DNA of 32,000 nucleotides from Desulfocapsa sulfexigens DSM 10523 (lineage in GTDB: Bacteria; Desulfobacterota; Desulfobulbia; Desulfobulbales; Desulfocapsaceae), in contig NC_020304.1 of assembly GCF_000341395.1 (NCBI RefSeq), positions 3,030,001 through 3,062,000 of the forward strand, written 5' to 3'. Positions 11,090 to 13,193 of this stretch are shown in pieces. Within the stretch, counting starts at the first letter, position 1; each line of letters starts with the position of its first letter. The notes under the pieces are model-generated. The model was not told where the DNA came from. It saw only the letters and a program-made list of their open reading frames with translations, and did not search any database. The position numbers and the translations under genes were made by a program.

Positions 11090-11215
11090 GGCTAACGTTG
11101 GAGCTCAGGGGCTGGCGGAGATTTGCAGCACTGAACTTTGATTAACTTGGGATTTTGGTAACAAGGCTGAACTTCGGAAAACCGCGCTGCCCGCCAGTCC
11201 CTTGCAGCGGTTTGT
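11090..11215 (-). other. Integron attC site (attC-2), major part; the remaining 7 nt lie at 13184-13190 beyond the intron
   Basis: On the + strand, GGCTAAC (11090-11096) is the complement of R' GTTAGCC. GGGGCTGGCGG (11108-11118) pairs with CCGCCAGTCCC (11191-11201). The R'' complement GT|TAGAAT is split, with GT at 11214-11215 and TAGAAT at 13184-13189. The reconstituted site is about 133 nt. Confidence 0.7.
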
Positions 11216-13183
11216 GTACGCCCGACATGGGCGTGAACTAATGGGGTTAGAGTCCCCTGTAAGTGTTCCATGTAACGTTGTGAAACGTAACATAAATTAC
11301 TAGCCAATGGCAAGGGCGTTACCGTGAGGTAGGGTCTGAAGGAAGCCGGATGGCAAAGATATGGGGTGACGAACAGAAATATCATATAAGGCCGAGTCTC
11401 TGGGGCAGTCAGCACAACATAATTACGCCCGGGAACAGGAGATACGGTAAATGATGCGCTCGCATATCGGAAGTTCACGCTCTTATTCGGGGAGATCTGT
11501 ATTCCATGCAATATGAAATTATTTCCAGTGAAATTACCGGTGGGGTTCCGGTTTCCAAATATCCCGGCATAGACAGGGAATGTCCTGCCCGTCTGTGAGA
11601 TACGAAGAAAGAAGACAGACAGGAAATGATGAAATACGGCACCACTTTGAGCAATCGGAATGGTGAGAATGCAGAAGTCAGCAGAAGCCATAGTAGCCCA
11701 AAGCCGGGGGTAATGCCCCGGACACGGTGAAGGGCTGAACATTAAGGAGAGAAATATGTTGCCAAGACACCTTACGCGTACTGTGAACCTGAACGGGGGA
11801 GTAGTGTATAAGCGTATCGCGGATGAGCAGTTCTCAAACGATCAACTACTGGAACGTATAGTTTCGACAGAGAATGTCGGTAAGGCCTGGAAACAGGTGC
11901 GCAGTAATAAAGGTGCTCCCGGAATCGACGAAATAACAGTCGAGGATTTCCCGTTCACTTTTCGTGAATGCTGGCCTGAAATACGCTCAACCATACTGGA
12001 AGGGAATTACATCCCTTCTCCTGTTCAGAGAGTTGAAATACCCAAACCGGATGGCAGTACTCGTCCTCTTGGGATTCCAACTGTGCTGGATAGAGTTATC
12101 CGGCAGGCCATCGCTCAGGTTATGAGTCCTATTTTCGATCCTCATTTTTCAGAATCGAGTTGTGGGTTCAGACCGGGCAGATCAGCCCATGACGGAGTGA
12201 AGCAGATAAAGCAGTACATCAGACAGGGCTACAAAGTCGCAGTTGATATGGATTTGTCGAAATTCTTCGACACAGTCAACCACGATGTTCTGATGAACCG
12301 GGTATCACGTCGGATAGAAGATAAACGTGTACTCAAGCTTATCGGCAAATACCTTCGGGCTGGCGTAATGGTTAATGGCCGTCGTCTTGCAACTCCGCTT
12401 GGAGTACCGCAGGGCGGTCCTCTTTCGCCACTTCTTGCAAATATTCTTCTTGACGATCTGGATAAGGAACTGGAGAAACGTGGTCACCACTTCGTTCGTT
12501 ATGCCGATGACTTCATCATTTTAGTGAAAAGTCTTTCAGCAGCAGAACGGGTGATGGCCAGTGTCAGCAGATTCCTGAAAAGAGAGCTACGGCTAATCGT
12601 CAACGAGAAGAAAAGCAGTTTTGGTAAAGTGGAGGAATGCAGTTTTCTCGGGTTTGTCTTTGTGCGAGGCAAAATAAGATGGAGCGACAAAGCCTTTTGT
12701 GAGTTCAAAAGACGTATTCGTCTTTTTACCGGAAGAAGCTGGGGCGTCTCCATGGAATACCGCCTACACAAACTTGCAGAGTATGTACGGGGCTGGATAA
12801 ACTATTACGGCATTTCGGAGTATTATCGCCCGATCCCGATAGTAGACGAATGGCTCCGTCGCAGGATACGAATGTGTTTCTGGAAACAATGGAGATATAC
12901 ACGAACCAAAGTGTCCAATCTTCTCAAGCTGGGAACCTTCAAAAGACAGGCAATTATGACAGCATTAAGTCGTAAAGGCCCATGGCATCTCGCCAGAACC
13001 CTGGCTGCACAAACGGGCATGACCAACAAATGGCTGAAAGAACTTGGGTTGATATCTGTCAAAGACCAGTGGGTGAAGATTCACTATCCGGCTCAGGCCC
13101 GATGACCTTAATGAACCGCCCTATGCGGAGCCGCTTGTGGGGTGGTGTGGGGAGGGCGAGGGAAAACCTTGCCTTTACCCGAT
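11216..13183 (+). mobile_element. Group II intron, class C (attC-type), inserted in attC-2 antisense to the cassettes
   Basis: The 5' end is GTACGCCCGACATGGGCGTGAAC (GUGYG-like). The IEP ORF sits in domain IV. The domain V-like hairpin (13115-13146) has a 7-bp lower helix containing CGC with a G.U wobble, a 2-nt 3' bulge, a 6-position upper helix with one U.U mismatch, and a 4-nt loop. The domain VI-like hairpin has a bulged A (13177) 6 nt before the 3' end ...CCCGAT. The element is about 1.97 kb. Boundaries are good to about 2 nt. Confidence 0.8.
11756..13105 (+). CDS. Group II intron-encoded protein (reverse transcriptase / maturase, no endonuclease domain)
   Basis: 449 aa with RT motifs RPLGIPTVLDRVIRQA, FRPGRSAHD, GVPQGGPLSPLLANILL and FVRYADDFIILV (YADD). 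The C-terminal maturase X region has RGWINYYG. The protein ends without an HNH/En domain, as in class C introns. Confidence 0.92.
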   Translation: MLPRHLTRTVNLNGGVVYKRIADEQFSNDQLLERIVSTENVGKAWKQVRSNKGAPGIDEITVEDFPFTFRECWPEIRSTILEGNYIPSPVQRVEIPKPDGSTRPLGIPTVLDRVIRQAIAQVMSPIFDPHFSESSCGFRPGRSAHDGVKQIKQYIRQGYKVAVDMDLSKFFDTVNHDVLMNRVSRRIEDKRVLKLIGKYLRAGVMVNGRRLATPLGVPQGGPLSPLLANILLDDLDKELEKRGHHFVRYADDFIILVKSLSAAERVMASVSRFLKRELRLIVNEKKSSFGKVEECSFLGFVFVRGKIRWSDKAFCEFKRRIRLFTGRSWGVSMEYRLHKLAEYVRGWINYYGISEYYRPIPIVDEWLRRRIRMCFWKQWRYTRTKVSNLLKLGTFKRQAIMTALSRKGPWHLARTLAAQTGMTNKWLKELGLISVKDQWVKIHYPAQAR

Positions 13184-13193
13184 TAGAATTTTT

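Follow-up and report, generated by a model that had tools for sequence, protein, structure and literature searches.

The stretch of DNA analysed here, called the window below, comprises 32,000 nucleotides of the chromosome of Desulfocapsa sulfexigens DSM 10523 (NC_020304.1, positions 3,030,001 to 3,062,000) and holds, at 11216-13183 on the + strand, a group II intron of 1,968 nt within a recombination site (attC) of a chromosomal integron. Bacterial group II introns are ribozymes of six domains, with a conserved domain V, a bulged adenosine in domain VI, and ends that resemble GUGYG on the 5' side and AY on the 3' side. The window intron begins with GUACG, a 5' end common to the whole lineage as mapped in its relatives, and finishes with GAU; its annotation as a group IIC-attC intron draws on Rfam matches, on a second copy in the same genome and on the ends of these relatives. 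On the + strand the junctions at 11215/11216 and 13183/13184 read ...GCGGTTTGT / GTACGCCCG ... TTACCCGAT / TAGAATT, where the spaced slash marks the border between exon and intron, or, in a longer reading, ...GCGGTTTGT / GTACGCCCGACATGG ... CTTTACCCGAT / TAGAATTTTT. The length agrees with the figure of about 1.97 kb given in a preliminary description made from the letters of the window alone.

The intron and the remnant of an integron integrase gene lie on the + strand, and all cassette open reading frames (ORFs) lie on the - strand. An attI-like region that includes the first intI codons (13971-14148) is 91.6% identical to positions 982406-982583 of the same genome (contig C1 of genome G000), the stretch directly upstream of an intact intI gene at C1:982614-983561. 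The decayed integrase gene itself (14143-14762, +) matches family positions 108-315 only and is interrupted by frameshifts and stops; 14144-14899 is 89% identical to the remainder of the intact gene, and relative to this paralogue the remnant has, besides its frameshifts and stops, a deletion of 355 bp in its 5' part. Intact intI genes are present in the genome at C1:982614-983561 and C1:3265233-3266168. Counted from the attI-like region, the attC that holds the intron is the first of the array, and its earlier label, attC-2, has to be corrected. It begins 3 nt past the stop of the cassette ORF 13194-13376 and ends just before the next cassette ORF, so that the intron does separate two cassettes, as first described. 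The upstream cassette (13194-13972, -), delimited by its ORFs and Pfam, encodes a DUF6338 protein (13373-13972) and a 60-aa ORF (13194-13376), and the downstream cassette (10665-11084, -) consists of a 139-aa ORF for which Pfam gave no family. The next attC (bottom strand, 10578-10670, +), read by eye as TTATAAC-GTT-stem ... stem-TG-GTTAGCC, is laid out like the split site, with an R'' box that overlaps the stop of the 139-aa ORF.

Two Rfam models of domains I to IV, group-II-D1D4-3 (11318-11481, 113.8 bits) and D1D4-1 (11640-11735, 62.6 bits), score far above threshold, and RF00029, the model of domains V and VI, aligns to 13114-13183 in a permissive scan (36.2 bits, E 7e-5). Domain V is a 32-nt hairpin (13115-13146, +) defined by the RF00029 alignment and by covariation among 63 relatives. 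Its triad C13117-G13118-C13119 aligns to the AGC of the model and is invariant in the 63 sequences, as is the wobble pair G13118.U13143 (T13143 in the DNA); T13135-T13136 form a 2-nt bulge on the 3' strand, and the helix is 99.4% paired, with compensatory changes at 4 pairs. A CGC triad in a short domain V is a trait of class C, and the triad, the wobble and the bulge had all been read correctly in the preliminary description. Domain VI (13149-13180, +), placed by covariation, has compensatory changes in 8 of its 9 inner pairs and a bulged adenosine, A13177, 7 nt from the 3' splice site. Over the two domains, 99.3% of the cells in the alignment of 63 relatives pair and 12 pairs show compensatory changes, while control folds with slid partners pair at only 46-54%; the fold proposed at 13113-13183 is thereby well supported.

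Three lines of evidence fix the boundaries. The second genomic copy matches over exactly intron positions 1-1968 and its flanks are unrelated to those of the window. An uninterrupted paralogous attC (C1:264565-264697) reads CCTTGTTAGGC where the window has GTTTGT/TAGAAT, and since the alignment to this paralogue runs through the junction, the insert is exactly 11216-13183. Finally, relatives of the intron were collected from data with one genome per species, in which at least 537 matching stretches were found; the start GTACGCCC is shared by 52 relatives and the end ACCCGAT by 67, with all 52 of those mapped at the 5' end beginning GUACGCCC and all 67 mapped at the 3' end finishing ACCCGAT. 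A start at 11214 (GTGTACG...), suggested by the GT that precedes both genomic copies, was considered and ruled out, because seven relatives do not have that GT and the empty paralogue demands 11216. The intron is complete and apparently intact, of the self-splicing, mobile type to judge by its sequence.

Two stretches flank the intron that together make up the split attC. The 5' part of the bottom strand (11091-11215, +) was delimited with a constrained DNA fold, a pair table and the uninterrupted paralogue, to which it is 80% identical, and the 3' part (13184-13190, +) is TAGAATT, the remainder of the R'' box. With the exons joined they form an attC of 132 nt, GGCTAAC-GTT-stem ... stem-TTT-GT/TAGAA. 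The R' box GGCTAAC (11091-11097) is followed by a spacer, the L' arm (11103-11118), a variable centre of about 70 nt, the L'' arm (11191-11208), a second spacer and the first R'' bases TGT (11213-11215). With the R box held in the fold, 11213-11215 and 13184-13186 together form the partner strand of 11092-11097, and joining the exons regenerates a GTTAG box complementary to the CTAAC of R', as the preliminary description had foreseen. In the L box, 11103-11118 pairs with 11191-11208 and leaves T11198 and C11205 extrahelical, 6 bp apart on the 3' arm, which is where they are expected should the + strand be the bottom strand that recombines. The paralogue carries double changes in the stem (CTGG/CCAG to CGAG/CTCG) that keep it paired. 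This paralogous site is unoccupied, has a perfect target (CCTTGT/TAGGC), follows a 280-aa ORF and adjoins the apparent 3' end of a tRNA gene (L096 8565-8697). A simple attC finder (RYYYAAC...GTTRRRY plus constrained folding), applied to the whole window, lacked selectivity.

The insertion point divides the R'' box at TTGT/T, as first described, with intron-binding site 1 (IBS1) TTGT at 11212-11215 and IBS3 at T13184. Introns of the IIC-attC type insert on the bottom strand of the attC, within R'', where the consensus is TTGT/T (IBS1/IBS3), in the orientation opposite to cassette transcription and with the attC hairpin in place of IBS2 (PMC7923331); the same insertion rules are given for S.ma.I2, an intron of 1,971 bp (PMC3001079). 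Target, orientation and the likeness to S.ma.I2, which the preliminary description had named, are thus as published. Among relatives at distinct insertion sites the last four bases of the 5' exon are TTGT in 28 of 52 and TGGT in 12 of 52, and a T follows the intron in 60 of 62, the two exceptions being tandem introns. In these tandem pairs (L091, a metagenome-assembled genome of Gemmatales, at about 2298/2299, and L035) the ACCCGAT of one intron abuts the GTACGCCC of the next, as would result if another copy entered at the 5' junction of one already resident, and a 'second group II intron' is listed as exon 2 in PMC3001079.

Exon-binding site 1 (EBS1) is assigned to ACAA at 11414-11417 (+), the position first proposed for it, in the loop that caps a domain I hairpin within the D1D4-3 alignment. 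The stem pairs 11408-11411 with 11420-11423, and ACAA, within the loop (11412-11419, GCACAACA), pairs with UUGU of IBS1. Loop and exon change together in the relatives: ACCA accompanies an exon ending in TGGT or AGGT in L023 and L038, and C-first loops accompany exons that end in G in L065, L067, L072, L082 and L084. This covariation supports the assignment. Class C introns recognise their target through an IBS1-EBS1 pairing of just 3-4 bp, an IBS3-EBS3 contact and an upstream hairpin, and have no EBS2; of these features the site shows the 4-bp EBS1/IBS1 pairing and the hairpin.

The intron-encoded protein (IEP) is an open translation of 449 aa (11756-13105, +), encoded inside domain IV, with a reverse transcriptase (RT) domain at residues 95-301 that contains YADD, a maturase or X domain at 316-386 and a short C-terminal tail. 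Pfam assigns RVT_1 (1.3e-45) and GIIM (4.1e-17) and no HNH or other endonuclease domain to the ORF, in agreement with the reading that the IEP has none, and the protein scores 399.7 bits against TIGR04416, the NCBIfam model of group II RT/maturases (cut-off 300). In a search of PDB it aligns end to end with the 428-aa chain of the GsI-IIC RT (444 bits over IEP residues 31-439). The IIC maturases of E. rectale and R. intestinalis score 348, 255 and 254 bits, the 348 being E. rectale, while the proteins of class A or B score low, with 136 bits for LtrA and 130 for TeI4h. By similarity to solved structures, then, the IEP is of class C.

A maximum-likelihood tree of 85 IEPs, made by a quick search on a set without the named reference introns S.ma.I2, G.s.I1, N.e.I1 and GsI-IIC, joins the window IEP with 75 environmental relatives and three introns of class 1 integrons in a clade of 78 rows (SH-aLRT 99). 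Outside this clade fall four plasmid IEPs from ordinary gene contexts (38-43% identical; their class C membership is only inferred) and three more distant outgroup IEPs. Among the matches listed, the nearest relatives are metagenome-assembled Desulfobulbaceae and Desulfobacterales, with 77-95% amino-acid identity. A tblastn search of plasmids showed that hundreds of Enterobacterales plasmids carry an IEP 48-54% identical to that of the window. Three of these plasmid introns were examined; each lies within a class 1 integron, between cassettes and antisense to them, on the strand of intI1, and the flanking pairs are blaIMP-4 and arr-3, qacE and qacEdelta1, and arr-2 and aac(6')-Ib. At the sequence level two of the class 1 integron introns (L092, L093) have the ends GTACGCCC and ACCCGAT and the junction TTGT/TAGA, and the position of the window intron relative to intI and the cassettes is that of L092, L093 and L101. 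Because the tree is a quick one built without the named references, membership rests on the tree together with the shared ends and the shared target, and on these the placement of the intron in the attC-specific IIC-attC lineage is supported, as is the class assignment proposed earlier.

These observations lead us to conclude, with high confidence, that a decaying chromosomal integron received a full-length IIC-attC group II intron by retrohoming into the folded bottom strand of its first attC. As in the rest of its lineage, the ribonucleoprotein (RNP) of the intron would recognise the bulged attC hairpin in place of IBS2 pairing. It would read just 4 nt (IBS1) and 1 nt (IBS3) and reverse-splice into single-stranded DNA, and a primer made by the host would serve cDNA synthesis, the IEP having no endonuclease. 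Antisense to the cassettes, the intron would never be spliced out of cassette mRNA and would form a 2-kb block that separates the DUF6338 cassette from the 139-aa one. While it is in place only two pairs of the R box can form, as TGT is followed by GTACG and not by TAG. With the R box broken, recombination by IntI at the split attC is probably lost, and the site is probably no longer recombinable by this enzyme.

Several results weigh against this conclusion. The attC was identified by eye and by constrained folding rather than with an attC covariance model, and the energy of its hairpin gives no signal against shuffled sequences (z of -0.9 for the window and 0.04 for the paralogue), so that the identification rests on architecture, homology and context. 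The RF00029 score of 36.2 is slightly below the gathering score of 40. Of the two pairings proposed for checking, EBS1 with IBS1 is confirmed by covariation, but EBS3, sought in the same way among the relatives, was not located; IBS3 is almost invariant and hence offers no covariation by which to place it. The outward promoter is unconvincing as well. In the lineage P1out is TTGCCA-17-TTTAAT at about positions 76-104 of the complement (PMC3001079). The window intron has a -35-like TTGCCA at the homologous place, the complement of 11308-11313, with a degenerate -10 partner, TTACGT, and a promoter scan found no - strand hit inside the intron; promoters of the host may differ from the E. coli consensus. 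The intron of Desulfurivibrio alkaliphilus is likewise without a predicted outward promoter (PMC3001079).

One alternative is that a class C intron of the ordinary sort landed downstream of a hairpin resembling a terminator and that the attC likeness of its flank is coincidental. In its favour, class C introns generally insert after hairpins (PMC7923331), the energy of the hairpin is not above chance, and a few relatives sit at sites that have no clear RYYYAAC box. Coincidence would, however, have to supply at one place a CTAAC/GTTAG R box that is restored when the exons are joined, a spacer, an L box whose extrahelical bases lie on the arm where they are expected, a position 3 nt after one cassette ORF and directly before the next, an adjoining attI-like region and intI remnant, and a paralogous site with compensatory changes in its stem, and this for an intron whose IEP belongs to a clade of integron-borne introns. 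We regard such a coincidence as very improbable.

The genome holds a second full copy of the intron at C1:2495805-2497772, which is 99.3% identical to that of the window (14 differences) and occupies an attC-like site. The two IEPs differ by 4 amino acids, and in the window the ORF is open and YADD intact. Two copies so alike at different sites, with an open ORF and only these amino-acid differences, argue for recent mobility, and the window intron is probably active as judged from its sequence. When the 14 differences were polarised with four relatives the outcome was mixed, with no clear master or daughter copy. Some of them bear on an alternative in which the element is a true IIC-attC intron but the window copy is a fossil that has lost splicing or mobility. 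The window copy has derived changes, relative to copy 2 and close relatives, that weaken helices: a C.A mismatch at 11410/11421 in the EBS1 stem, and changes from G-C to G.U at 13170 and 13174 in domain VI. Its host integron is decaying, with intI a pseudogene, and a perfect empty target (CCTTGT/TAGGC) is still vacant in the genome. Yet the IEP gene is uninterrupted, YADD is kept, the proteins of the two copies differ at just 4 amino acids, the invariant positions of domains V and VI are all retained, and the 99.3% identity of copies at different sites implies recent movement; a fossil is thus unlikely, if less so than a chance likeness to attC.

A third, 5'-truncated copy at C1:3274571-3274851 (-) retains intron positions 1627-1968 minus an internal stretch of about 65 nt. 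The intact intI gene at 3265233-3266168 is 8.4 kb away, and the truncated copy runs antisense to the array of that integron. The site of copy 2 is flanked immediately by a 517-aa DDE transposase gene (DDE_Tnp_1_6/DUF772; L094 8068-9621, C1:2494067-2495620), and the array around it includes HicB, Phd/ParE and Abi_alpha cassettes.

Introns of this lineage have been proposed to take part in the genesis of cassettes (PMC7923331), and the preliminary description repeated the proposal; no sign of it was found at the locus. Applied to the window, the model of Leon and Roy (per PMC7923331) would make the locus an intermediate of cassette formation, in which recombination between intron copies has joined the end of a foreign gene to an attC. 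Two near-identical copies in the same orientation do occur in one genome, and the model was put forward for just this lineage. The flanks of the window intron, on the other hand, form a complete self-complementary R box (CTAAC with GT/TAG) and match the uninterrupted paralogue base for base at the junction, as would be expected had the intron simply inserted into an existing attC, and copy 2 lies in an attC-like site and not behind the terminator of an ordinary gene. With both full copies in attC-like sites whose halves fit, there is no hint that an intron has joined a gene to an attC, and we give the locus as a cassette intermediate hardly any credence compared with insertion into an existing attC. 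A wider idea is that intron copies in this genome serve as portable homology for reshuffling or building cassette arrays, in a natural instance of the proposed intron-mediated cassette genesis. The genome contains two IIC-attC copies that are nearly identical and apparently functional, plus a truncated one, along with at least two integron integrases that are intact; several arrays each begin with the same attI-like sequence, and perfect target sites stand unoccupied. As an account of this genome the idea is speculative and, in our estimate, improbable.

Further features of the window surround the array. The attI-like sequence occurs twice, at 6586-6723 and 13971-14148, with 92-95% identity to C1:982406-982583, and weaker copies head other cassette arrays at C1:2500953, 556937 and 1650966. 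The homology ends on the cassette side at ...CTGTT/ (in the 13971-14148 copy, ...CTGTT/AGAA), as the recombination point predicts, so several arrays may be duplicated or orphaned integron platforms. A Y1 transposase gene of the IS200-like/REP-associated kind (263 aa, 6773-7564, -) is inserted beside the second attI-like copy, the one at 6586-6723, framed by 24-nt inverted repeats at 6738-6761 and 7667-7690. Cassette-like cargo on the - strand includes a SIR2_2 protein (9359-10531) and a HerA/DUF87 ATPase (8157-9413), so that 8157-10531 looks like an anti-phage pair of the SIR2-HerA type within the array. Farther on, 4022-6494 (-) comprises an RVT_1 reverse transcriptase that is not a group II IEP (4022-5047), a 108-aa ORF and a PRTase-CE protein (5646-6494), with a highly structured 265-nt spacer between them (5048-5312) that holds near-perfect hairpins of 33 and 21 nt and ends in GTTAGCT; the unit is possibly a retron or DRT-type defence system carried as cassette cargo. 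On the other side, a tRNA gene (15092-15163, -) is located about 330 bp past the 3' end of the intI remnant and is abutted by a near-perfect 24-nt hairpin (15041-15089).

Within the collection of papers searched, none mentions a group II intron in Desulfocapsa sulfexigens. The locus adds a well-delimited and probably active IIC-attC intron from a Desulfobulbales chromosome. The lineage is familiar chiefly from clinical class 1 integrons, and the matching stretches, at least 537 of them, show it to be widespread among environmental anaerobes. Cassettes behind the intron are probably silenced or uncoupled by it, and one attC is probably disabled. For integron annotation it means that programs that search for attC will miss the split site. 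The understanding of how IIC-attC introns work is unchanged.

Compared with known systems the window intron is an ordinary further IIC-attC intron and not a new type of element. It is like the IIC-attC introns of class 1 integrons, such as S.ma.I2 of Serratia marcescens (AF453998) and those of the K. pneumoniae arr-2 array (AJ971342) and the blaIMP-4 arrays (MN661402), in its ends (5' GTACGCCC and 3' ACCCGAT), its length (about 1.95-1.97 kb), its TTGT/TAGA target within R'' on the bottom strand of the attC, its antisense orientation to the cassettes with intI on the strand of the IEP, and an IEP of RT and X domains, without endonuclease, that falls in one clade with theirs. It differs from them in amino-acid identity, which is only 48-54%, in an attC of 132 nt where theirs are about 70 nt, in a degenerate P1out, and in its host, a sulfur-disproportionating member of the Desulfobulbales with a decayed chromosomal integron in place of plasmid-borne resistance integrons. 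The introns of Geobacillus stearothermophilus (GsI-IIC), E. rectale and R. intestinalis share the class C architecture of the IEP; their insertion sites lie downstream of transcription terminators, which they follow in the sense orientation, and they are not known to enter attC. In other hosts of the Deltaproteobacteria type, G.s.I1 of Geobacter sulfurreducens and the intron of D. alkaliphilus are reported members of the same lineage and likewise reside in chromosomal arrays of environmental anaerobes (PMC3001079).

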